Virus record (IMG/VR): IMGVR_UViG_2534681772_000012
Location: 1-10,338 of that record
DNA: 10,338 bases
Source of the DNA: a virus
Taxonomy: Duplodnaviria; Heunggongvirae; Uroviricota; Caudoviricetes
Strand: one strand, 5' to 3'
A program made the translations under genes and the position numbers. The notes beneath the pieces are model-generated. The model saw only the letters and a program-made list of their open reading frames with translations, had not been told where the DNA came from and did no database searches. Positions 1 to 10,338 of the stretch are shown here, piece by piece; position 1 is the stretch's first letter; the number at the start of each line of letters is the position of its first letter.

Positions 1-70
1 TCACAAAAACGTAACCACACTGCCAATAGCCAGAGAAATATAATTTTTTTTGCGATTTTTTAGAACTGAC

Positions 71-130
71 ACAACGTGAAACAACGAGACACCACGACGA
101 ACAACGGCGAACAATCTGGAACAAACTTGA
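71..130. repeat. Six tandem 10-bp units with ACAACG-like core (ACAACGTGAA/ACAACGAGAC/ACCACGACGA/ACAACGGCGA/ACAATCTGGA/ACAAACTTGA), helical-turn phased; putative protein-binding array upstream of alpA
   Basis: Read directly from sequence: units start every 10 bp from position 71. Function is inferred from the phasing and the position in the AT-rich leader upstream of the alpA-like gene. Confidence 0.4.
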
Positions 131-410
131 TTAACATCTGACTGACACCCTAAAAAGTTGATTTTCAGTCGTTTTACTGGCTTTTTGTACATTGGCGAAT
201 CACTCTTAAAAACATGTAAAAAAGGCGTAAAAACAGAATTTTATGCCTTTGCACCACAATGAATTAAAAGAGTTTTTATTCTCATTACCACACTTCTGTA
301 AAATGACCGCCGCCAGTGTTTGCCATTCCATAAACACCCTGACACAATCCGACGCACCACAACACAATAGGACACCAAATAACTCTTTAAGAAATATCAA
401 AGGGGGAATT

Positions 411-599
411 GTGTTAAGCACAGATCGCTTTATACGTGAAAAAGAATGTCAGCAACTTACAGGCCTGAGCCGTTCATGTCGGTACCGCCTGGAAAAAACC
501 GGACAATTCCCATCACGGCGTAAGCTCGGCGGTCGTTCCGTTGGCTGGTCTTTATCCGAAGTTCTGGCATGGAAGGAAAGCTGCGAGGCAGTTCACTAA
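411..599 (+). CDS. alpA: AlpA-family (phage Vis/Xis-like HTH) transcriptional regulator
   Basis: C-terminal 63 aa of ORF 243..599 (MLSTDRFIREKECQQLTGLSRSCRYRLEKTGQFPSRRKLGGRSVGWSLSEVLAWKESC) match the AlpA/Vis family length and HTH pattern. GTG start at 411 follows RBS AGGGGG (401-406); the in-frame extension back to 243 has no RBS and looks like leader. Stop TAA 597-599. Confidence 0.8.
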   Translation: MLSTDRFIREKECQQLTGLSRSCRYRLEKTGQFPSRRKLGGRSVGWSLSEVLAWKESCEAVH

Positions 600-651
600 T
601 CAGGCTGGCGGCACACCGCCGCCACCCATCCACTAATACAGAGATCTAACC

Positions 652-1842
652 ATGAATACTGGATATTCTCCCGAACAAGGGCGGGGCTTCGTTCGTCCTG
701 AAAAACAGAATCTGCAAAATTTTGCCGAAATTATTCCGGTTATTTCCGGCCTTACTGGCGGGAGTGAAACCAATATTGTTAACGCCAGAGCGTTGCAGAT
801 GTTTGATGATAAAAAGGGAGTAAATTTAACTTACACCCCTGACGGCAATCAGAATATGAGCATTATCTCTGAGTCAGGTTTCTACAAACTAATAAAAACA
901 AAAAGCGCCCCGTTCCCGGAGCGCCTTTGTGAACAATTAACCTACTGCGCAAAAAATGAATCTGAGCAGTGGGATTATATCAACCGTGTGGCGAAGCGCC
1001 ACAATTGCCGGATAACAGGCAAAACAAAGGCCACCCGCTACGGTGGCCCCTCGACACAAGCTACACGTTATCCCCAACGCATGAGCATCACCAACAATGC
1101 CACATTTGCGGCTGGTGGGCAATGTGATCAGTCAGATTTGGTTCGTTCCAAGGTTTGCAACGAGAGCTTTTTCCTGTGCTCTTTAAGGAATTTCTCAAGA
1201 GCAAAAGCACATGGCGCGAATCTTTCTGATTCATGCTCTATCTTTCTGCGCCGTCTTTTCCGTGCCGGTGATAATGTTTTGGTCAATTCTTTATCGGTCA
1301 TTGTGTTGTCCTGCATAGCAATGCGCCGTAATACCTTACACCACGGCGCTGATGGTGATTACTCTGGTTCTTTGGTCTTGCGACGCTGGAGTTCTTCGCG
1401 TGCAACGGTGACAAGCTGCCCGATTTCTTCCGCTGCTTTGATGCCGATTTGTTCGACCTTAGCCAGGGCATCCAGTGACGACACAAGGGGATTTTCTCCG
1501 CTGCCTTCTGCTTGGCGGCGGGCTATTTCTCCGCGCATGGCGGTTACGATAAATCCGGCATTGCTTTCGCCGTCCAGCTTAACGGATTCCATCCCTTGCA
1601 TAACATCTAGTGGGACTCTGACAGTTGTCAGTTGTGATTTTGCGTTTTTGTTAGCCGTTGCCATTTCTGAAACTCCTAATCATCGGTGTGTTTCAGTATA
1701 CACAAAAAAAGAAATACAAAAAGCCTTGACGTGTGTTTCATGCGCTCATAACATGAAACACACCAAAAGAATTGTTGAAATACAAAGAGCAACGCCCCGC
1801 AGTGCCGGAAACACATACGGGGCGTCTAACCACCAACGATAG
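652..1842 (+). CDS. Questionable ORF; at most an N-terminal remnant (~652-900) of a disrupted gene, faintly Bro-N/Rha-like (IISESGFYKLI)
   Basis: ATG-to-stop ORF from the track. After ~aa 90 the translation is Ser/Cys/Arg-rich, as expected for an antisense read. It runs antisense to two protein-like minus-strand ORFs and through two minus-oriented terminator hairpins. No convincing RBS before ATG 652. Confidence 0.2.
   Translation: MNTGYSPEQGRGFVRPEKQNLQNFAEIIPVISGLTGGSETNIVNARALQMFDDKKGVNLTYTPDGNQNMSIISESGFYKLIKTKSAPFPERLCEQLTYCAKNESEQWDYINRVAKRHNCRITGKTKATRYGGPSTQATRYPQRMSITNNATFAAGGQCDQSDLVRSKVCNESFFLCSLRNFSRAKAHGANLSDSCSIFLRRLFRAGDNVLVNSLSVIVLSCIAMRRNTLHHGADGDYSGSLVLRRWSSSRATVTSCPISSAALMPICSTLARASSDDTRGFSPLPSAWRRAISPRMAVTINPALLSPSSLTDSIPCITSSGTLTVVSCDFAFLLAVAISETPNHRCVSVYTKKEIQKALTCVSCAHNMKHTKRIVEIQRATPRSAGNTYGASNHQR
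891..924 (-). terminator. Putative rho-independent terminator for minus-strand transcripts
   Basis: GC-rich imperfect hairpin 905-924 (GCGCCCC/GGAGCGC, one mismatch) followed on the minus strand by TTTTTGTTTTTATT (reverse complement of 891-904). Confidence 0.4.
1021..1048 (-). terminator. Putative rho-independent terminator for minus-strand transcripts
   Basis: Perfect 7-bp stem GGCCACC (1029-1035) / GGTGGCC (1042-1048) with a 6-nt loop, followed on the minus strand by TTTGTTTT (reverse complement of 1021-1028); about 80 nt downstream of the stop of minus ORF 1128..1301. Confidence 0.45.
1128..1301 (-). CDS. Small basic hypothetical protein (~57 aa, MTDKELTKTLSPARKRRRRK...)
   Basis: Minus ORF 1128..1316; the second in-frame ATG (1301) has a weak AGGA-like RBS. 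Lies just downstream of the RHH-like regulator and upstream of the minus-strand terminator. Composition is protein-like but there is no recognisable family. Confidence 0.3.
   Translation of the reverse strand: MTDKELTKTLSPARKRRRRKIEHESERFAPCAFALEKFLKEHRKKLSLQTLERTKSD
1359..1664 (-). CDS. Putative ribbon-helix-helix-like DNA-binding regulator (candidate repressor of the island), 101 aa
   Basis: Strong RBS AGGAG 8 nt upstream of ATG (minus 1677-1673). Balanced protein-like composition; N-terminal beta-strand-like TTVRVPLDV followed by helix-loop-helix (MQGMESVKLDGESNAGFIVTAMRGEIARRQ) resembles the RHH/Arc-MetJ fold. Divergent from the rightward operon promoter, the classic regulator position. 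Confidence 0.6.
   Translation of the reverse strand: MATANKNAKSQLTTVRVPLDVMQGMESVKLDGESNAGFIVTAMRGEIARRQAEGSGENPLVSSLDALAKVEQIGIKAAEEIGQLVTVAREELQRRKTKEPE
1686..1763. promoter_or_regulatory. Divergent promoter/operator region: sigma70-like promoter TTGACG (1726-1731) - 17 bp - TAACAT (1749-1754) for the rightward operon, overlapped by a perfect 12-bp inverted repeat GTGTGTTTCATG (1731-1742) / CATGAAACACAC (1752-1763); a third GTGTGTTTCA half-site at 1686-1695; leftward -10-like TATACT (complement of 1696-1701)
   Basis: Hexamers and repeats read directly from the sequence; assignment as operator for the adjacent regulator is inference. Confidence 0.5.
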
Positions 1843-1861
1843 CAAGATTATCGAGGCTGCT

Positions 1862-2068
1862 ATGAGAAATCATACCATACACCCGCAAGGGCGGGACTCG
1901 CACAACCTGAATAAATACATCTGGCGTTTTATCGCCCTGAGTACGGCACAACCGCGCGTGATTACCATTGAGGCCACCAGCGAACAGGAAGCCCGTCAGC
2001 AATCACCGGCTGGCTGCGTGATGGTATTCGCCGCCCGTATTCGTCAGGGGGTGCACCATGTGCAATAA
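1862..2068 (+). CDS. Small protein, probably Icd-like (host cell division inhibitor Icd-like family of P4-type satellites)
   Basis: ATG 1862 with GAGG RBS; the track ORF uses an upstream TTG at 1772. Motif pattern YIWRF-ALS...EATSEQEAR...FAARIRQ matches my memory of Icd-like proteins. Stop overlaps the next start (ATGTGCAATAA). Confidence 0.5.
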   Translation: MRNHTIHPQGRDSHNLNKYIWRFIALSTAQPRVITIEATSEQEARQQSPAGCVMVFAARIRQGVHHVQ

Positions 2069-2525
2069 CACCCGTCCGGACGCAGCCGCCGAAGCAATCA
2101 AAACACTGATTGATGCGCTGATTGATATTTCTGTTATCGCGGACAGGGCGCATAAGCACGCTACCAGTGAAACAGAATATGCCGGGGCTTTCGTTCCTCA
2201 TTCGCTGGCGGTTATGCAACTTAGTGCGGATATGGCGCTGAATGAGGCCAAAGCCATCCTGATTGCTGATTGTGAAAATGGGGGGGGGGTTATGCGTGAT
2301 GATCGTTTTAATTCCCTGAAACAGGAATTTTCCGGCGTTCCTGATGATGCGGCTGATGCGCTTTCGTCAATGCCAGAGCTTATTAGAGCGGCTTTTTTCT
2401 TACTTTCCACGAGAGAATATAAATCAACGGGGCTTGATGTACTGAATATCGCCGCCGATTATGCGGAATATGTGGCAGAGGCGCGTTACAGAAGAAAATT
2501 TCCTGAGGATGTAAGCCATGCGTGA
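2058..2525 (+). CDS. Hypothetical protein (155 aa) containing an internal G10 homopolymer
   Basis: ATG 2058 preceded by AGGGGG RBS; translationally coupled to neighbours on both sides. No recognisable family. G10 run at 2280-2289 encodes GGG and is followed by an in-frame ATG at 2292. Confidence 0.55.
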   Translation: MCNNTRPDAAAEAIKTLIDALIDISVIADRAHKHATSETEYAGAFVPHSLAVMQLSADMALNEAKAILIADCENGGGVMRDDRFNSLKQEFSGVPDDAADALSSMPELIRAAFFLLSTREYKSTGLDVLNIAADYAEYVAEARYRRKFPEDVSHA

Positions 2526-2751
2526 TATTTACCACGAAACAATAGACCGCGCATTTCTTGCACTTTCTCACAGTGAAAACATGCTGGAAATATTGCGCAT
2601 ATGGCTTGAAACACTTGGCGACAATGAACGCGACAAACAAAAATCAAGAATTGCCACGGCATTAATAACGCTTCTTGAGCCTGTAATAATGGAACTGCAA
2701 GAAATAGATCTATTGCACGACAGATATAAAGAACAGCACACCGGAGAATAA
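2518..2751 (+). CDS. Hypothetical protein (77 aa)
   Basis: ATG 2518 overlaps the upstream stop by 8 nt; GAGGA RBS; protein-like composition; no recognisable family. Confidence 0.55.
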   Translation: MRDIYHETIDRAFLALSHSENMLEILRIWLETLGDNERDKQKSRIATALITLLEPVIMELQEIDLLHDRYKEQHTGE

Positions 2752-2756
2752 AAATA

Positions 2757-3056
2757 ATGAAACTTAAATATTCTGGCTTAACTGCCAGTGGCAACACTCA
2801 CCCTAAATTTACGCGCGGTGATATTTACCGCGACCAGTACGGCGGCACGGTAATGATTAAGGGCGTGGAAGAACGGCGCGTAATCTACCGCCGTGAAGGT
2901 TACGAATATGATTGCGTGATGCCTGTTTATCAGTTCCGGTGTGATTTTTCTCTGGTACAGACCGCGCCGCATAACGTGCCCACCAGCAACGCCAGGGCAC
3001 GGGCAAACATCCAGAAGCTGAAAACCATGATTAACGGATTCAGGGGCAAGAAATGA
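2757..3056 (+). CDS. Hypothetical protein (99 aa)
   Basis: ATG 2757 with GGAG RBS; stop overlaps the rep start (ATGA at 3053-3056); no recognisable family. Confidence 0.55.
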   Translation: MKLKYSGLTASGNTHPKFTRGDIYRDQYGGTVMIKGVEERRVIYRREGYEYDCVMPVYQFRCDFSLVQTAPHNVPTSNARARANIQKLKTMINGFRGKK

Positions 3057-4468
3057 AAAGCGCACCGAACTTAAAAAAACAGCCTTACGACAAAATGACC
3101 GAAGTCATTATTTTTGCGGGTAGTGATGCCTGGGCGCACGCGAAACAATGGCAGGAGCAGGACGGGCGACTTGCTGGCGACAATGTTCCGCCTGTATGGC
3201 TGGGAGACAGCCAGCTTGACGAACTGGCAGGCCTGAAAATTATCGACGATGGTCGCTATTGTGTCCGACTGTACAAGGCAGGCCACATCAAGCCGTCAAA
3301 TATTAATGCCATCGGGCAAAAGCTGGCGGCGGCAGGTGTACGGGATGCGAATTATTACCCTGAGGGAATGCACAGTCAGAAGCTGGAGAACTGGCACGAC
3401 TACCTGCAACGGATCCGCGAACAGGCAGAGCGCGGGGAAATACTTACTGACGAGCAATACAGCCAGCGAAAAACCACGCTACCAATGAGCATTGGATCTG
3501 CAGGGTACGACACACAGCTTGATTATGTCGTTAAGGGCGTGATTCCGGCTAATTCATTGTGCAGCACATACGGCGCGAGCGGTTCCTATAAATCGTTCCT
3601 CGCGTGTTCCTGGGCGTGTCATGTTGCCACGGGTCGCCACTGGGGAGGTCGCAGGGTGGCGCATGGTTCGGTGATGTATGTTGTCGGTGAAGGTGGCATT
3701 GGTGTCCCCCGCCGTATCAAGGCATGGGAAATCGTTAATGATGAACGGGTGAAAAATCTGTACCTGGTAAACCGCCCGATTTTTCCTGCAGCCCAGTTTG
3801 ATGTTGATGAAATGGTTATCGCATCCCGCCAGGTTGAACGGGAAACGGGTAAACCGGTACGCATGATTATTCTGGATACGCTGGCGCGTTGCTTTGGCGG
3901 TAATGATGAAAATGACGCGCGGGATATGGGGGCGTTTATCCGTGGATGTGACGAACTGAAACGACGCACAGGGGCCACGGTGCTGGTGGTTCACCATTCC
4001 GGCAAGGATGAAACAAAAGGGGCGCGTGGTTCCAGTGCATTTCGTGCATCTCTGGACGCTGAGTACCGGATCCGCCGCGAAGGCGCGGACAGTGAGGCCC
4101 TGGTTATCTCCTGCACCAAAATGAAGGACGCGGAGGAACTGAAAGAGGCTGCATATGATTTACGTGTGGTGGAGCTTTTTACCGACGCTGACAAGGAGTT
4201 AATCACGTCGCTGGTGGTTGTGGATAAGCCGCGCCCACCCGTTGAACTGGAGCGCATCGAGGAGGCCGGAAACAAGACGGAGAATCACGCCGCACTATGG
4301 GGCTGTATCCGGTCACGCACACAGCGCGGCGATAAATGCACTATCCCGTTGTTGCGCGATGATATGAAAAAGCTGGGGTATGAGATGAAAAACTTCCGGC
4401 GCTGGCTGTACAAGCTGGAAAGAGACGGCGTTATCGCTATTGACGGTGATGATGTGCGCCCACTGTAA
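3053..4468 (+). CDS. Replication initiator / RepA-like RecA-fold (AAA_25-type) ATPase, 471 aa; no primase domain recognised
   Basis: Walker A-like GASGSYKS and Walker B-like hydrophobic run ending in D (RMIILDTL) in the central region; RBS AGGGG; an iteron array follows the stop codon immediately, as in PICI/SaPI-type pri-rep/ori units. Confidence 0.8.
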   Translation: MKSAPNLKKQPYDKMTEVIIFAGSDAWAHAKQWQEQDGRLAGDNVPPVWLGDSQLDELAGLKIIDDGRYCVRLYKAGHIKPSNINAIGQKLAAAGVRDANYYPEGMHSQKLENWHDYLQRIREQAERGEILTDEQYSQRKTTLPMSIGSAGYDTQLDYVVKGVIPANSLCSTYGASGSYKSFLACSWACHVATGRHWGGRRVAHGSVMYVVGEGGIGVPRRIKAWEIVNDERVKNLYLVNRPIFPAAQFDVDEMVIASRQVERETGKPVRMIILDTLARCFGGNDENDARDMGAFIRGCDELKRRTGATVLVVHHSGKDETKGARGSSAFRASLDAEYRIRREGADSEALVISCTKMKDAEELKEAAYDLRVVELFTDADKELITSLVVVDKPRPPVELERIEEAGNKTENHAALWGCIRSRTQRGDKCTIPLLRDDMKKLGYEMKNFRRWLYKLERDGVIAIDGDDVRPL

Positions 4469-4669
4469 AAAGTGAGGCGCAAAAGTGAGGGGATAGCAGG
4501 AACTGAACAAAAAGCAACCGCGCCCCTCACTTTTCAATCTGTATATAGGCTCAAAAGTGAGGAATAAAAAACACATTGAAAAACAACATATTAGAATCAC
4601 AAAAAAACAAGGTTGGAAATCATGTGGGGAGCTTAAAAAGTGAGGCGAAAAAGTGGGGAGTAGTGGGGA
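4467..4669. repeat. Putative origin of replication: iterons (consensus AAAAGTGAGG) flanking an AT-rich core
   Basis: Copies at 4467-4477, 4481-4490, 4523-4534 (inverted), 4553-4562, 4635-4645, 4647-4657 (degenerate), plus degenerate 4621-4630 and 4661-4668; AT-rich stretch 4563-4620; directly 3' of rep. Confidence 0.6.
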
Positions 4670-4921
4670 ATGACCAGAAAAAGCAGAGATAAAACAGCAC
4701 CAAAATATCGCGCATTAGACATGACAGAGCACGCCTTAAAGGTGGCAATCAGAACGATAGACCGCCACGCCGGAGAAGGATACGCGAAAGCGCATCCCGA
4801 ACTGATAAGCGCATTCATGACCACGGCGGCGGCAAATTTTGCCACACTGACAGAACGGGAGATTGCCGAAGCGGAACAGGTGACAACCATCAACGTTAAA
4901 ACCGGAGAGCAGACAGCATGA
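4670..4921 (+). CDS. Hypothetical protein (83 aa), translationally coupled to ssb
   Basis: ATG 4670; stop TGA overlaps the ssb ATG (ATGA at 4918-4921); no recognisable family. Confidence 0.5.
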   Translation: MTRKSRDKTAPKYRALDMTEHALKVAIRTIDRHAGEGYAKAHPELISAFMTTAAANFATLTEREIAEAEQVTTINVKTGEQTA

Positions 4922-5340
4922 CAGCACAGATAGCGGCTTACGGGCGGCTGGTGGCTGACCCGCAGTTAAAGACCACCAGCAAGGGTACACAAATGACGAT
5001 GGCGAGTATGGCGGTCCCACTTCCGTGCAGCCAGGCAGATGACGGAACGGCGACGATGTGGTTATCCGTCCTGGCGTTTGGCAGACAGGCCGAAGCACTG
5101 GCAAAGCACCGCAAGGGTGAACTCCTGAGCGTGGCGGGTAACATGCAGGTAAGCCAGTGGACAGGCCAGAACGGCGAAACGCGGCGGGGCTGGCAGGTTA
5201 TCGCAGACAGCGTAATCAGTGCGCGAACGGCGCGACCGGGCGGCAAAAAAGGTCAGCAGGGGCAGGCCACTGACGCACTGAACAGGGCAAAACAACAGTC
5301 GGGGAATGATGATCCGTACGGCGATAATATACCGTTTTAA
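4918..5340 (+). CDS. ssb: Single-stranded DNA-binding protein (short, 140 aa)
   Basis: GGAGA RBS; OB-fold-like N-terminal pattern; Gly/Gln-rich linker; acidic C-terminal tail ...DDPYGDNIPF resembling the SSB signature DDDIPF. Confidence 0.65.
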   Translation: MTAQIAAYGRLVADPQLKTTSKGTQMTMASMAVPLPCSQADDGTATMWLSVLAFGRQAEALAKHRKGELLSVAGNMQVSQWTGQNGETRRGWQVIADSVISARTARPGGKKGQQGQATDALNRAKQQSGNDDPYGDNIPF

Positions 5341-5357
5341 ATTCTGCAAACAAAAAG

Positions 5358-5386
5358 ATGCCGGAAAAAAATAGATTTTCCGGCAT
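5358..5386. terminator. Hairpin with 11-bp perfect stem (ATGCCGGAAAA / TTTTCCGGCAT, 7-nt loop); terminator-like, T-tract only on the minus-strand side
   Basis: Read directly from the sequence, 18 nt after the ssb stop. On the minus strand it is followed by CTTTTTGTTTG; on the plus strand there is no T-tract. Confidence 0.4.
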
Positions 5387-5551
5387 GCTACATAAATCCC
5401 GACCAAAGGAAGTAAATACATTAACACGAATTATCAGCACTGAAGTTGTCACGGCATATTTTATACAACATTGCACTTGGTTGCATGTATTCGCATAGCA
5501 GACATCGGTAATAGAATATATTCACAATTATTTGTAATGAATGTAAAGAGG

Positions 5552-6598
5552 ATGAGTATGGTTGATTTATATTCGCCTACACAGCTTGTGCAGGTGGCTA
5601 ATGCTGAAGATGTGCAAAAAAAATTAAATGCGTTGTTTACCAGTTTGTTTTTCACTCGCTCGGTAATGTTTGAATCGAGAGACATTATTCTTGATACGAT
5701 CGACGATCCAAATATCCCGATCGCGGCGTTTTGCTCTCCTATGGTGGGCAGTAAAGTTTCACGAGATGAGGGATACGAATCAAAAACAATTCGCCCTGGC
5801 TATATGAAACCGAAAAGCAGCATTGATCCAAATAAGTTAGCTGTGCGCCCTGCTGGTGTATCACCTGAACAATACAATGCTTTTGGGGCGCGTAATATTA
5901 AAGTTAAACAGGCGATTGTAAATCAGGCTAAAGCTATACGTGCACGTATTGAATGGCTTGCTGTTCAGGCAATCACAACGGGGAAAAATATCATTGAGGG
6001 CGATGGTATTGAACGTTATGAACTGGACTGGAATATAAAACCACAAAATATTATCACGCAGTCTGGCGGTGCTGAGTGGTCAGGTAAGGATAAAGAAACT
6101 TTTGATCCAAATGATGATATTGAGAGCTACGCAGAATTTAGTGAGGGCGTCACTAATATCATCATTATGGGCGGTAATGTATGGAAGAAATACCGTTCAT
6201 TCAGAGCGATAAAAGAGGCTCTGGATACCCGCCGTGGTTCTAATTCCGAACTGGAAACGGCCCTTAAAGACCTTGGTGATTCGGTGAGTTTTAAAGGGTA
6301 TATGGGCGATGTTGCGATTGTTGTTTACAGCGGACGTTATACCGACGAGGACGGAACTGAAAAACATTTCCTTGATCCTGATTTGATGGTGCTTGGCAAT
6401 ACGGCTCTTCAGGGGATTGTCGCCTATGGCGGTATTCAGGATCCGGAGCTAACCCGAATGGGGCTGACTAAAGCCGAACTTGCACCGAAAAACTATATTG
6501 TGCCTGGTGATCCGGCTATTGAGTACGTACAAACGCACTCTGCACCACAGCCAATACCGGCCCGCATCAATCGTTTTGTTACCGTTCGCATTGGCTAA
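5552..6598 (+). CDS. Lambda gpE-like major capsid protein
   Basis: Translation from MSMVDLYSPTQL aligns along its length with my memory of lambda gpE (MSMYTTAQLL..., ITQSGG-EWS-DK-T-DP-DDIE-YA, TRRGSNSELETA-KDLG, GDVAIVVYSG-Y, MVLGNT, GDPA). Start 5552 by homology; ATG 5558 has better RBS spacing from AAGAGG. Stop TAA 6596-6598. Confidence 0.85.
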   Translation: MSMVDLYSPTQLVQVANAEDVQKKLNALFTSLFFTRSVMFESRDIILDTIDDPNIPIAAFCSPMVGSKVSRDEGYESKTIRPGYMKPKSSIDPNKLAVRPAGVSPEQYNAFGARNIKVKQAIVNQAKAIRARIEWLAVQAITTGKNIIEGDGIERYELDWNIKPQNIITQSGGAEWSGKDKETFDPNDDIESYAEFSEGVTNIIIMGGNVWKKYRSFRAIKEALDTRRGSNSELETALKDLGDSVSFKGYMGDVAIVVYSGRYTDEDGTEKHFLDPDLMVLGNTALQGIVAYGGIQDPELTRMGLTKAELAPKNYIVPGDPAIEYVQTHSAPQPIPARINRFVTVRIG

Positions 6599-6607
6599 GG
6601 GGGAGCA

Positions 6608-6850
6608 ATGGCTACTCATTACACTGAACTCATGTCTGGCACTGAAGCACTGGTTACTACGCTGGGGATATTTTCAGCCAATAAAGGGGTAATACCTGCG
6701 TTTACGCCACTGATGCAGGAAGATGCAACTGGTGCGCTAGTGGTATGGGATGGAACGAGCGCAGGCAAAGCGGTTTATGTTTCCGCTGTACAAATCGACA
6801 CTGAACCGCCCCGGGAATCCTGGAGACTAAACTCCCTGAGAAAGAGGTAA
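6608..6850 (+). pseudogene. Lambda gpD-like head decoration protein gene, 3'-truncated by IS629-like insertion
   Basis: RBS AGGGGGAG; TPLMQEDATGALVVWDGTSAGKAVYVSAV matches the lambda gpD region [29 protein letters not shown]. Homology ends at 6801, where the IS inverted repeat begins; the last ~16 codons of the ORF are IS-derived. Confidence 0.7.
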
Positions 6851-6855
6851 ACAGG

Positions 6856-7182
6856 ATGACTAAAAATACTCGTTTTTCCCCCGAAGTCCGTCAGAGGGCG
6901 ATTCGTATGGTTCTGGAAAGTCAGGGCGAATATGACTCACAGTGGGCGGCAATTTGTTCCATTGCCCCAAAGATTGACTGTACACCGGAGACTCTGCGTG
7001 TCTGGGTACGCCAGCATGAGCGGGATACCGGAGGCGGTGATGGCGGGCTCACCACCGCTGAACGTCAGCGTCTGAAAGAGCTGGAACGTGAAAATCGTGA
7101 ACTGCGCCGCAGTAACGATATCCTTCGCCAGGCTTCCGCTTATTTTGCGAAGGCGGAGTTCGACCGCCTCTGGAAAAAGTGA
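6856..7182 (+). CDS. IS3-family transposase OrfA (HTH/leucine-zipper part), IS629-like
   Basis: 108 aa, [30 protein letters not shown]...[36 protein letters not shown]; ends at the frameshift window. Confidence 0.9.
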
Positions 7183-8069
7183 TGCCACTGCTGGATAAGC
7201 TGCGTAAGCTGTACGGGGTCGGACCGGTATGCAGTGAACTACATATTGCCCCGTCAACGTATTACCACTGTCAGCAACAGCGACATCATCCTGATAAACG
7301 CAGTGCCCGTGCGCAGCGCGATGACTGGCTGAAGAAAGAGATACTGCGCGTATACGATGGGAATCATCAGGTATACGGTGTGCGTAAAGTCTGGCGTCAG
7401 TTGTTACGGGAAGGAATCAGGGTAGCCAGATGTACAGTGGCGCGCCTCATGGCGGTTATGGGACTTGCCGGTGTTCTCCGGGGTAAAAAGGTCCGCACTA
7501 CCGTCAGCCGGAAAGCCGTTGCCGCAGGCGACCGCGTAAACCGTCAGTTTGTGGCAGAACGTCCTGACCAGTTGTGGGTGGCTGATTTTACTTACGTCAG
7601 CACATGGCAGGGGGTCGTCTATGTGGCGTTCATCATTGATGTGTTTGCCGGATACATCGTGGGGTGGCGGGTCTCATCGTCTATGGAAACGACATTCGTG
7701 CTGGATGCTCTGGAGCAGGCGTTATGGGCCCGTCGACCGTCCGGCACAGTCCATCACAGTGATAAAGGTTCTCAGTATGTATCGCTGGCCTACACACAGC
7801 GGCTTAAGGAAGCCGGATTACTGGCATCAACAGGAAGTACTGGTGACTCGTATGACAACGCGATGGCGGAGAGCATCAATGGCCTTTACAAAGCGGAGGT
7901 AATACACCGTAAGAGCTGGAAAAACCGGACAGAAGTGGAACTGGCCACACTCACGTGGGTGGACTGGTATAACAATCGACGATTGCTGGAAAGGCTGGGC
8001 CATATCCCACCGGCAGAAGCAGAAAAAGCTTATTATGCTTCCATCGGAAACGATGATCTGGCAGCCTGA
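7179..8069 (+). CDS. IS3-family transposase OrfB (DDE catalytic domain), IS629-like; expressed as OrfAB fusion by -1 frameshift
   Basis: 296 aa with DDE-type motifs ([31 protein letters not shown]); overlaps orfA in the -1 frame. Confidence 0.9.
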
Positions 8070-8123
8070 GTTCACAGATAAAACACTCTCCAGGAAACCC
8101 GGGGCGGTTCACAAAGTGTTTTT

Positions 8124-9698
8124 TCATCGCACACCGCCTTTTTCCTGATGAAAGCGGCAACGAGCAATCACGGATTGAATTTCAAATTGTGTGGTTTCAT
8201 GGATTGAAATAAGTGGATTGCGGGCGTTACCAACACTGTCTGAAATGGAAATCAATTCATCGACTTCTTTAACTACACTCTCCAGCACCGCCTGATGGTC
8301 ACCATCAGTAAAGGGGCGGAAATACAGGCAACCGTAGCAGCAGCGTACTTCACTGAATGGGCATTTGCCATCATCTCTGGAGCAACCGCCAATCCCATCA
8401 TGCAACTCATCACCGATTATGCCGACCACGCGCTGGTCTTGCCATTTCGTTGAAGAGGTCAGTTCACCAGTCAACATCATAGCCACCATGTTTTGCCATA
8501 CCGGATTGATACCCAATGCTTTGGCTCGAATCAGTGCCAGTGCAGGCGTCGCCAGAATGTAATACTTGGCAACAGTAAGGGAGCTATGTCCCAGAATATG
8601 CGCAATTTCCTCGGCGCTGACCCCTTGCATAGCCAGTGAATGCCCCACGTTGTGGCGCAAGTCGGTCGGGGTAATGGTTGGCAAAGCCGCTTCGCCACGC
8701 TTTACGGCTGCCTGATAATCTGGCGGACTGAAACAGAGGAAGGCCTTGTTAATCGCTCTGGACACATTAAACGGTGCAGAGTTACTAAATTCAAATAGCT
8801 TGCCATCAGGTTTTAGTTGCGCTCGCTCGATATAGTGCCTAATCAACGCGCCGATTTCAGCTGGAATCGCCAAAAACAGACGTTCAGTCGTTACGTGCCG
8901 CTGTTTGGCGTAAGGAAGGAGTAAGCTATATCGTATTAATCCGGTTTCGGAGTTTCGGGTATCAATACGTAAATCTTTTACCGCCAGCTTGGCCAGTTGT
9001 ACCGGTCGGGCACCGGTGACATACGTCAGTCCCAGAATTACTGCATCTCGCATGGTGTTCAGACTGTAGTTTTCGCCATACCGAATCGCCACAGCCATTT
9101 CAAACAAGCCTTTACTGATCATGTTTTTTTCGAGGGGATCCAGAACATGATCAATTTCCTGATAGATTCCCCAGTCATGGGAGTGCGGGCGAGGGATGAA
9201 TTCGAGGTCTTCATAATCTTCGAGGGTAAAACCAGGGAATGCTTCGGTACAGAGGATTTTTAGGCCGAAAATGATAAAGTAGAAATATTGAGGTTTAATT
9301 TCCTGAGTTTCGAGGTAATCTTTCAACACCGTAAAAGTGAAAGCAGATTTGCTTATGCAATGATCAGTTGCCAAAGACCACGCATGGAGTACCCCAGGAA
9401 CCTGAGCTGGACACTTGGCAGATGCATAATGGAAGCAAATATATTTGATTAATTGGTTGCTGATTTTATCCTGACGAAAGTGGGCATAGCAGCGGCTTCC
9501 TGAATAATCGAATACCCAACTGTCACTTGTTGAGCTGATATATTTGTCATCAAAATGATCTGCCGATTTAAGATAAATACTAACTGGTATATTAACCTTT
9601 AAAATACTCTCAACAAATACAGGTGTGTAAATGTTGCTGTTCGACGCATTTAACTGTTTATTGATTCGACTCATATGCACTCCATTCATCGCATACAT
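8124..9698 (-). CDS. Tyrosine recombinase / phage-integrase-family protein, large (516-524 aa) with Cys-rich C-terminal region
   Basis: Catalytic-motif pattern in the central part: GARPVQLAKL (Arg box), DLRHNVGHSLAM (H-x-x-R), LGHSSLTVAKYYI (His/Tyr nucleophile box). The best RBS (GGAG) precedes the third in-frame ATG at 9674, so the true start may be 9674. Stop is 12 bp from the IS629 end. Confidence 0.75.
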   Translation of the reverse strand: MYAMNGVHMSRINKQLNASNSNIYTPVFVESILKVNIPVSIYLKSADHFDDKYISSTSDSWVFDYSGSRCYAHFRQDKISNQLIKYICFHYASAKCPAQVPGVLHAWSLATDHCISKSAFTFTVLKDYLETQEIKPQYFYFIIFGLKILCTEAFPGFTLEDYEDLEFIPRPHSHDWGIYQEIDHVLDPLEKNMISKGLFEMAVAIRYGENYSLNTMRDAVILGLTYVTGARPVQLAKLAVKDLRIDTRNSETGLIRYSLLLPYAKQRHVTTERLFLAIPAEIGALIRHYIERAQLKPDGKLFEFSNSAPFNVSRAINKAFLCFSPPDYQAAVKRGEAALPTITPTDLRHNVGHSLAMQGVSAEEIAHILGHSSLTVAKYYILATPALALIRAKALGINPVWQNMVAMMLTGELTSSTKWQDQRVVGIIGDELHDGIGGCSRDDGKCPFSEVRCCYGCLYFRPFTDGDHQAVLESVVKEVDELISISDSVGNARNPLISIHETTQFEIQSVIARCRFHQEKGGVR

Positions 9699-10085
9699 GG
9701 GAAAAGGTTGATTTCAGGGCTTCGTTATCAATCACAATTCGCTGAAGATTGGCCGTATTAGCCTGCTGAGATAGAAATCTTTTAGCGTAAAGATCAGGCA
9801 TATGGCTATTGTGACTCCAACCGCCAAGTAGCCGTAATTCATCCTTGGCTTCATCCATCAATCCAACGATAGAAAAGTCTATGGCTGCCAAGTGTGAGTT
9901 GGCCTTAATTTTTTGAAGTTTATCACGATAAATACGTTGAAGTGTTAAATAAGCCCAAGTATGCCGCGTTATATGAGGCGAGATGCTTTCAATGGCATCA
10001 TAATATTCATCTTTTTTATATTCAGGATACTGCACACTCATAATGTCATCAATACGGGTAAAGATATCATAGACTGCATGGTATG
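9658..10085 (-). pseudogene. C-terminal catalytic fragment of a second tyrosine recombinase, 5'-truncated by IS2
   Basis: PHITRHTWAYLTL (H-x-x-R box) and LLGGWSHNSHMPDLYAKRF (His...Tyr box) present; N-terminal domains absent. The first ~9 codons of track ORF 9658..10113 (MSGDSGGQS) are encoded by the IS2 terminal repeat. Its 3' end overlaps the start of the downstream recombinase. Confidence 0.65.
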
Positions 10086-10338
10086 TAGACTGGCCCCCTG
10101 AATCTCCAGACAACCAATATCACTTAAATAAGTGATAGTCTTAATACTAGTTTTTAGACTAGTCATTGGAGAGCAGATGATTGATGTCTTAGGACCGGAG
10201 AAACGCAGACGGCGTACTACACAGGAAAAGATCGCTATTGTTCAGCAGAGTTTTGAACCGGGAATGACGGTCTCCCTTGTTGCCCGGCAACACGGTGTGG
10301 CAGCCAGCCAGTTATTTCTCTGGCGCAAGCAATACCAG
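10086..10338 (+). mobile_element. IS2 (IS3 family) left end, partial; continues beyond the window
   Basis: TAGACTGGCCCCCTGAATCTCCAGACAACCAATATCACTTAAATAAGTGATAGTC... matches my memory of the IS2 terminal repeat and leader; followed by the IS2 orfA start. Confidence 0.85.
10177..10338 (+). CDS. insC: IS2 transposase OrfA (InsC-like), 5' partial at window edge
   Basis: ATG 10177; translation [54 protein letters not shown]... matches IS2 OrfA as I recall it; ORF open to the window end. Confidence 0.8.

Follow-up and report, generated by a model that had tools for sequence, protein, structure and literature searches.

Lambda-type capsid and head-decoration genes in the truncated copy of a Gram-negative satellite island: relatives, upstream control region and possible role

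The IMG/VR virus record IMGVR_UViG_2534681772_000012 was analyzed from position 1 to position 10,338, and this whole stretch of 10,338 nt is termed the window. It contains two adjacent genes on the plus strand that resemble the genes E (major capsid protein) and D (head decoration) of phage lambda, followed by an insertion sequence (IS). A preliminary description had regarded them as an isolated, stand-alone capsid gene pair. This view was not upheld, because the pair stands at the head of a packaging cassette, as its first two genes, and this cassette belongs to a known type of phage satellite. Positions 1–6801 of the window represent the left two-thirds of a Gram-negative phage-inducible chromosomal island (PICI) of about 9.6 kb. 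They were aligned to positions 7401–14202 of locus L001, which contains the intact island of E. coli TW10590, with one gap and zero mismatches over 6,802 columns. Judged by its gene content and the criteria of PMC6092414, the region is near certain to be a Gram-negative PICI of the EcCICFT073 type.

The E gene (5558–6598, plus strand) is intact, encodes a protein of 346 amino acids (aa) and is a member of the lambda gpE-type family of major capsid proteins. The protein matched the Pfam profile PF03864 (Phage_cap_E) at profile positions 4–327 of 329 with an expect value of 1e-41 and 143.6 bits (cut-off 22.9), and PHROG 29 ("major head protein") was matched at 4e-89. A direct alignment with lambda gpE yielded 42% identity over 348 columns (residues 2–346 versus 1–341, 5e-87). 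The similarity to gpE that had been proposed therefore extends over the whole profile and from end to end of the protein, and E is a real but very diverged relative of the lambda capsid gene. The solved structures that were matched included 3bqw as the best hit at 3e-121 and lambda gpE (7vi9) at 2.4e-77. The entry 3bqw comprises 351 residues and is labelled "putative capsid protein of prophage". Its printed alignment reads identical to c1499 of CFT073, and it is apparently the structure of this protein. In EcCICFT073, the product of c1499 has been described as a capsid protein, and that of c1500 as a protein for head decoration (Fillol-Salom et al. 2018, PMC6092414). The E protein of the window is 100% identical to WP_000228104.1 of E. 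coli TW10590. The start codon is the ATG at 5558, and RefSeq and all orthologues use this second ATG. The start at 5552 that had been assumed initially is six bases early, and the ribosome-binding site GAGG directly abuts the ATG at that position.

The D gene (6608–6801, plus strand) belongs to the lambda gpD/phage 21 SHP family of head-decoration genes according to profiles, structures and orthologue comparison, but only the first 65 of 113 codons are present. The break was placed at 6801/6802, so that the interruption by an IS was recognized correctly in the preliminary description, and the reading frame enters the IS for 15 codons up to a stop at 6850. The remaining D sequence scored 25.4 bits with Pfam PF02924 (HDPD), which is under the cut-off of 29.1 because the gene is truncated and only 65 residues remain, and it matched PHROG 49 ("head decoration") at 9e-14. 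An intact orthologue of 113 aa, which is identical over the 65 retained residues, reached 56.2 bits with PF02924. It matched the structures of phage 21 SHP (1td0) at 3e-16 and of lambda gpD at 1.5e-12 to 3e-12, and it was 40% identical to lambda gpD over 78 residues. The assignment as a gpD-like gene is thus confirmed by the intact orthologue. A short N-terminus, as had been noted for D, is not apparent: 31 residues precede the conserved TPLM motif, compared to 35 in gpD, and the intact protein has 113 aa and gpD 110 aa. In L001, the intact D gene reads on as ...ATCGACAC|AGCGAAA past the point at which the window sequence breaks off. The window copy lacks the C-terminal half that would be required for a complete fold, and it is a pseudogene. 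As described before, the gene order is inverted, with E before D here and D before E in lambda.

The intact island of TW10590 runs from int to an open reading frame (ORF) of 93 aa and is located between abgR and smrA. Its left part contains int, alpA, a YlcI/YnfO-family gene on the opposite strand, an Icd-like gene, small ORFs, a DUF4222 gene, a RepA-family helicase gene, an ORF of 83 aa and ssb. The right part contains E, D, a second gene for an AlpA-family helix-turn-helix (HTH) protein (127 aa, PF05930), a Nu1-family terS gene of 180 aa and the 93-aa ORF. The exact lambda cosN 12-mer, GGGCGGCGACCT, is found at L001 14802–14813 between the second AlpA gene and terS, and cosN thus precedes the island terS as it precedes Nu1 in lambda. 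In the intact relatives the cassette has the order stem-loop, three TTGCAY repeats, -10-like box, E, D, second AlpA-family gene, cosN and Nu1-like terS. A second island, L002, has the same cassette with a different int and alpA and is inserted at tRNA-Pro. In the cassettes at the chromosomal sites abgR-smrA, tRNA-Pro and cspD-clpS, both E and D are intact. The TerS protein of L001 (PF07471) is 37% identical to lambda Nu1 almost to the C-terminus. Its gene, at L001 14947–15489, encodes a full-length homologue that was aligned nearly through the C-terminal part that binds the large terminase (TerL), and it is lost from the window. The characterized Rpp proteins of EcCICFT073-type islands have 135–153 aa and lack the TerL-binding part (PMC9026076). 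In view of this difference between a full-length Nu1-like TerS and the short Rpp proteins, the helper TerS is possibly dispensable, and packaging in this group of islands may be independent of it.

The gap between ssb and E (5341–5557, 217 bp) is non-coding and contains a hairpin, in agreement with the preliminary description. The stem-loop at 5358–5386 consists of an 11-bp stem and a 7-nt loop, has a predicted dG of -16.2 kcal/mol (z = -4.05) and folded better than all of 200 shuffled sequences. The hairpin that had been called terminator-like is therefore real and stable, but the terminator score applies only to the minus strand: an A-run precedes the stem on the plus strand, a T-run follows it on the minus strand, and the scan scored a minus-strand terminator only. 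Stem-loops of other sequence with dG values of -15 to -20 kcal/mol are located at the same place in L002 and L005–L008, and stem-loops are also present in L010 and L011. In most loci the stem-loop has a 5′ A-run and just two or three T's after it. Possibly the hairpin is a leaky terminator in both directions, or it halts transcripts that run leftward.

Inspection of the region 5387–5551 for conserved motifs revealed two elements. Three direct repeats, TTGCAC/TTGCAT/TCGCAT, with a period of 10 bp are located at 5471–5496 (plus strand) and represent a candidate regulator-binding site on the basis of their conservation. The triple-repeat pattern was matched once in the window and by none of 200 shuffled sequences, and it occurred once in each of the eight related loci, always 59–75 nt before the start of E. 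It was not found in the other four loci that were searched, including lambda, the CFT073 island and unrelated flanks, and a double repeat was not found elsewhere in the window. The second element is a -10-like box, TAATAGAAT, at 5509–5517 (plus strand), a candidate promoter of the E-D cassette. It lies in a block conserved as GTG.TA.CAT in the alignment and has the form TGnTAnnAT in the relatives. The distance from the third repeat to the -10-like box is 17 nt in the window, L002 and L010, but 26–27 nt in L011 and in the four other genera, a difference of one helical turn. Nine loci (the window and eight related loci) from five genera thus share an arrangement before E that consists of a stem-loop, the phased triple TTGCAY repeat and an extended -10-like box, whereas the upstream gene varies and is ssb in the E. 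coli islands and another ORF in other loci. That this layout is retained although the upstream gene changes supports the proposed independent regulation of the E-D pair.

Winged-helix proteins of the Xis/AlpA kind typically bind phased head-to-tail repeats. Helper late activators had been suggested as regulators of the pair. The cassette is accompanied by a regulator that the island itself encodes: this second AlpA-family protein always follows D, and its DNA-binding core is nearly invariant across genera. The islands L001 and L002 have unrelated int and alpA genes, yet they share the same repeats and the same second AlpA protein. For these reasons, the second AlpA-family protein is favored as the predicted binder of the TTGCAY repeats. 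The master AlpA protein was rejected as a candidate on account of the unrelated alpA genes in two islands that share the repeats, and because the double repeat occurs nowhere else in the window. Activation by lambda CII was also considered, as the repeats fit TTGC-N6-TTGC. A search for CII boxes recovered lambda pRE, pI and paQ, each with 13 nt from the second TTGC to the -10 element. In the satellites, the -10-like box follows the last repeat after 17 or 26–27 nt and no -10-like sequence is conserved at 13 nt, so that CII is an unlikely activator. In the Cedecea locus (L007 9916–9941), and only there, two of the three repeats have TTGTAC instead of TTGCAC. The second AlpA protein of this locus (L007 11408–11791) is the only one with Gly in place of Arg in the conserved LSRRTL segment. 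The two changes possibly represent a single case of site-protein co-variation.

The same gap might also give rise to a small RNA. The Rfam search of 5300–5600 yielded only a chance-level match (0.85), and RNAalifold, applied to a poor alignment of the minus strand from the repeats to the hairpin, gave no consensus for a conserved small RNA. In single folds, only Kluyvera, Superficieibacter and Kosakonia shared a stem-loop of the form CUGU...ACAG, the loop of which is of the CCUCC type, and the z-scores in E. coli were weak. The respective minus-strand regions are 5346–5470 in the window, L005 9760–9900, L006 9762–9904 and L008 9764–9899. A conserved minus-strand box, TGTATAAA, lies at about 5462–5469 of the window, and the minus-strand terminator follows about 100–125 nt downstream of it. 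Transcription of a short leftward RNA, divergent from the E promoter across the TTGCAY repeats, is thus conceivable.

The distribution and the divergence of the pair were analyzed next to its layout. A 2.2-kb query from the 83-aa ORF to D was covered to at least 80%, with full-length and open genes, in 365 of 5,426 complete E. coli genomes, and any part of it was present in 1,755 of them. The gap and the 5′ end of E were found in 366 genomes with 88–100% identity. Orthologues of E in Kluyvera, Superficieibacter, Cedecea and Kosakonia are 79–86% identical. Closer relatives in phages were not found among 50,697 phage records: the best match for E was lambda itself with 41.8%, the best for D had 42%, and the best relative of c1499 in the same records reached only 47%. 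Between genera, dN was 0.05–0.14 and dN/dS (the ratio of nonsynonymous to synonymous substitution rates) was 0.02–0.08 for E, and dN/dS was 0.07–0.11 for D, with synonymous sites at or near saturation in both cases. Both genes are under strong purifying selection. The low identity to phage proteins, the orthologues in several genera and the low dN/dS values together argue that the E-D pair is an old satellite-specific lineage kept by selection, and neither a recent capture nor a decaying relic.

Three of the related loci point to the phages with which the cassette interacts. In L007 (Cedecea), L008 (Kosakonia) and L010 (E. coli IAI39) the satellite resides inside a lambda-type E gene at about codon 80–82. 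In the former two, the helper D and the first 82 codons of E are upstream of the satellite and the rest of E is downstream. In L010 only the downstream part of the helper E remains, followed by FI, FII, Z, U, V, G, T and H. The interrupted helper E genes encode proteins that are 66–99% identical to lambda gpE, but only 41–45% identical to the satellite's own E. The L010 satellite proteins are 98% (E) and 95% (D) identical to those of the window. By their position, these three satellites are helper-embedded PICIs of the type described in PMC10111431, and because they sit in lambda-type E genes, lambda-like phages can be named as the partners of the E-D cassette. At L010 11599–12741 an opposite-strand gene for a TIR-domain protein occupies the position of terS, and it is probably anti-phage defence cargo.

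The remainder of the island in the window has the gene content of a PICI. The window begins inside the integrase gene, of which only the last 43 nt are included (1–43, plus strand, from the alignment to L001). The whole gene at L001 6214–7443 encodes arm-binding and catalytic domains, so that int and alpA together mark one end of the island. The alpA gene (411–599, plus strand; PF05930, 1.3e-17, and a RefSeq coding sequence in the near-identical island) is at the canonical PICI position after int, and AlpA is the helper-induced master activator in EcCICFT073 (PMC6092414). It is followed by a YlcI/YnfO-family gene (1359–1664), the sole clear minus-strand gene of the island (RefSeq of the near-identical island, PHROG 6522), and by an Icd-like gene, small hypothetical genes and a DUF4222 gene (1862–3056, plus strand; ORFs, profiles and RefSeq). 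A run of ten G's at about 2280–2289, compared to eleven in TW10590, is the sole difference between the two islands in 6.8 kb. Through it, two small ORFs (80 and 77 aa) that are distinct in TW10590 become a single ORF of 155 aa. The difference could be a sequencing error or the result of homopolymer slippage. A RepA-family replicative helicase (AAA_25; 3053–4468, plus strand; PF13481, 3e-44; PHROG 2850, 906 and others) belongs to the satellite replication module. A hypothetical 83-aa gene (4670–4921, plus strand, within the segment 4670–5340) and ssb (4918–5340, plus strand; PF00436, 1e-15; PHROG 44) lead up to the E gene, and the ssb gene had been named correctly as the upstream neighbor of E. 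The DUF4222 gene, the helicase and ssb thus provide the island with its own replication module. The intact island (L001 6214–15844) is small and, according to its annotation, devoid of tail, lysis, portal, protease and large-terminase genes. A cos site and a terS gene are present in the intact relatives but not in the window, where cosN was not found even when two mismatches were allowed; cosN and terS are missing because the IS junction removes the right part of the island. The near-identical island is located in the chromosome and is not helper-embedded. Portal, protease, head-tail connectors and TerL are unannotated in the intact loci L001, L002 and L011, and the islands therefore differ from capsid-forming PICIs (cf-PICIs).

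The IS that interrupts the island after codon 65 of D (6802–8111, plus strand, 1310 bp) is an IS3-family element similar to IS1203/IS629. It has the terminal inverted repeats TGAACCGCCCCGGG/CCCGGGGCGGTTCA, two frameshifted transposase ORFs and an ALIL pseudoknot (7137–7253, 116 bits), the only Rfam match of the window at the gathering threshold. It is labelled IS1203 family in annotations of complete genomes. A 3-bp target-site duplication was not found at the window IS, which is flanked by CAC on the left (6799–6804) and CAA on the right (8109–8114). In TW10590, this IS copy is flanked by CAA left and right (L003 5998–6003 and 7308–7313). There it is 197 kb away from the island, in the same orientation and with the same right-hand neighbors, two tyrosine recombinase genes. 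The D::IS junction was present in none of the 5,426 complete E. coli genomes. As the IS lacks a target-site duplication, an adjacent deletion or a mis-join has to be considered. An intramolecular transposition of the left IS end into D with deletion of the 197 kb would give exactly this junction and fits the data. The same junction would result, and the data fit as well, if this IS had recombined with a second copy located in D or if the assembly had been led through the repeat. The end of the window carries a further, IS2-like element that is missing at this site in TW10590. This marks the source strain as IS-active and favors a real event over an assembly artefact. The concern that the region might be an assembly chimera thus applies to the D::IS junction only, where mis-assembly is possible, and the identification of E and D is unaffected either way.

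Right of the IS, two adjacent tyrosine-recombinase genes are located on the minus strand (8124–10085), one of which encodes a protein of 524 aa (PF00589). The other one is interrupted at 10086, where the left end of the IS2-like element begins (10086–10338), and this element has an InsC-like ORF. In TW10590, these recombinase genes adjoin filamentous-phage-like genes (zonular occludens toxin family and a GspD-type secretin). The window contains neither the second AlpA gene, cos and terS nor the right end of the island. In this copy, at most E could still be made, and the island would no longer be packageable as a unit.

Taken together, we consider it probable that the window segment is the capsid cassette of a cos-type PICI, a satellite of lambda-like phages, and we propose the following mechanism for the intact island. 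The E-D cassette would be a transcription unit of its own with an activator-dependent promoter that is turned on after helper induction. A winged-helix regulator bound to the phased repeats, most likely the second AlpA-family protein, would switch the cassette on. The satellite E protein would then assemble shells on the portal, scaffold and protease of the helper, none of which is encoded by the island, and trimers of the satellite D protein, which would have diverged along with its E, would stabilize these shells. The Nu1-like TerS would bring the helper large terminase to the satellite cos site. The shell-building part of this mechanism is predicted with reserve, and we regard it as a serious possibility rather than as an expectation. 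It is preferred over mere interference with the helper because the cognate decoration protein has been kept under strong constraint.

Several observations weigh against this proposal. In EcCICFT073, deletion of c1499 or c1500 altered neither the interference with lambda nor the transfer by the resident helper, and the DNA packaged with lambda was phage-sized (PMC6092414). The pair is thus dispensable under the conditions tested in EcCICFT073, and the lack of a phenotype with three helpers is the main counter-argument to shell-building. The satellite E is merely 42% identical to lambda gpE by alignment, yet it would have to use the portal, scaffold and protease of lambda. At the level of transcription, the hairpin is oriented as a minus-strand terminator and may not end the ssb transcript. 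The promoter-like hexamers that had been reported are present (TTCGCA-16-TAGAAT, 5490–5517), but sigma-70-like matches do not exceed the number expected by chance (3 found, 3.6 expected), and the promoter and its binding protein are inferred only from conservation.

Three other explanations were weighed. The satellite E together with D could act as an interference device that co-assembles with the helper capsid protein or competes with it, and thereby spoils or resizes the capsids. Precedents are the small capsids made by SaPIbov5 with its Ccm protein and by PmCI172, which has a capsid homologue (PMC6092414, PMC6893505), and the satellite has a size of about 9.6 kb, compared to about 48 kb for lambda. 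We nevertheless regard this explanation as unlikely, because interference in this group has been attributed to proteins of the Rpp/TerS type (PMC6739421), and a decoration protein of its own, held at a dN/dS of about 0.1, would be superfluous for a poison subunit. A similarly low probability is assigned to the idea, raised in PMC10111431, that the satellite E is a spare copy that stands in for a helper E gene interrupted by integration until the satellite excises. The location of three of the nine loci (L007, L008 and L010) inside a lambda-type E gene would be in line with it, but the satellite E is just 41–45% identical to the interrupted one. Moreover, D is not interrupted in the helper and yet is also carried and conserved, the copies at the chromosomal sites keep both genes intact, and the redundancy was noted to be non-essential in PMC10111431.

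It is very improbable that the pair is a decaying, now functionless remnant of a lambdoid prophage head region. The pair without phenotype in EcCICFT073 (PMC6092414) and the destruction of the window copy by an IS could be taken as signs of decay, but full-length open genes in 365 of 5,426 E. coli genomes and in four other genera, and dN/dS values of 0.02–0.11 with synonymous sites at or near saturation, are not expected for a relic. That the low dN/dS values are an artefact of recent spread is opposed by the protein identities of 79–86% and the saturated synonymous sites. In addition, the genes do not follow the order of any lambda head region, and the neighbors are satellite genes and not prophage genes.

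Returning to the proposed capsid cassette, we suggest, as a tentative and rather doubtful extension, that E, D, the second AlpA gene, cos and terS form a minimal "half capsid-forming" module, with which the satellite would assemble coat and cement proteins of its own on the portal, scaffold and protease of the helper, and which would be governed by a dedicated, repeat-controlled switch. If this were true, the module would take a middle place, as classical PICIs rely on helper capsids alone and cf-PICIs have a full head module. In the switch, the three phased TTGCAY sites would then be flanked by the rightward E promoter on one side and, on the other, possibly by a leftward promoter of a short RNA that is terminated. 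Capsid genes are the commonest phage late genes in Gram-negative PICIs, and the sole genetic test so far did not reveal a phenotype. The lineage, the selection and the control region argue that the E and D genes are functional. Experiments could start from the repeats, from the second AlpA protein or from a natural pair of helper and embedded satellite, as in IAI39. The window's own copy, as part of a broken island, adds little.

The comparison with known systems shows that this kind of gene pair is already known, as it has been described and mutated in EcCICFT073. Of 29 reference Gram-negative PICIs, 21 have a capsid gene, and no other late gene is as common in them (PMC10111431). Papers from 2020 onward that assign a function to the E and D genes of PICIs were not found in the literature searched. 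EcCICFT073 has the same two families in the same E-then-D order, with 55% (E) and 54% (D) identity to the window. Its pair is likewise situated in the packaging end of an int-alpA-replication island with a lambda cosN, which parasitizes lambda-like cos phages. It differs in that a PerC-family gene and a 68-aa ORF, and not ssb, are located upstream, in the absence of the TTGCAY triple repeat, and in a short HTH gene at the rpp position by cos (RppA, PMC6739421) instead of a full-length Nu1 homologue. It also has two copies of cosN in the island and one more in its helper prophage. In front of c1499 (L004 231–248 and 395–445), TATAAT leads directly into a terminator with a 14-bp stem and a T-run (404–435), which is followed by the 68-aa ORF and c1499. 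This arrangement of a promoter and then a terminator resembles, by analogy, a lambda Q-type antitermination unit.

Eco567.11capE and the other helper-embedded PICIs (PMC10111431) are likewise islands with their own E homologue, but they reside inside a prophage gene, whereas the window-type island, as represented by TW10590, lies in the chromosome between abgR and smrA. The similarity to D and E of lambda and to shp of phage 21 extends over the full length (42% for E; 40% over 78 residues for D), and relatives of Nu1 and cosN accompany the pair. In contrast to lambda, the island has the inverted order with the pair before cos rather than after portal and protease genes, and it has no counterparts of the genes W, B, C, Nu3, FI and FII. 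The cf-PICIs (EcCIEDL933; bioRxiv 10.1101/2022.09.08.507074) are also satellites with a capsid protein of their own, but they carry a full head module (capsid, protease, portal, head-tail connectors, HNH, TerS and TerL), whereas the intact island described here encodes just E, D and a TerS. The Ccm protein of SaPIbov5 is a satellite homologue of the helper major capsid protein, as E is. However, it redirects the capsid size, while no size change was observed for EcCICFT073 with lambda (PMC6092414), and its host, helper and protein lineage are unrelated. In summary, beyond these known systems, the present analysis adds a satellite-only lineage of E and D, the purifying selection that acts on it, the conserved layout upstream of E and an account of the 197-kb IS junction.

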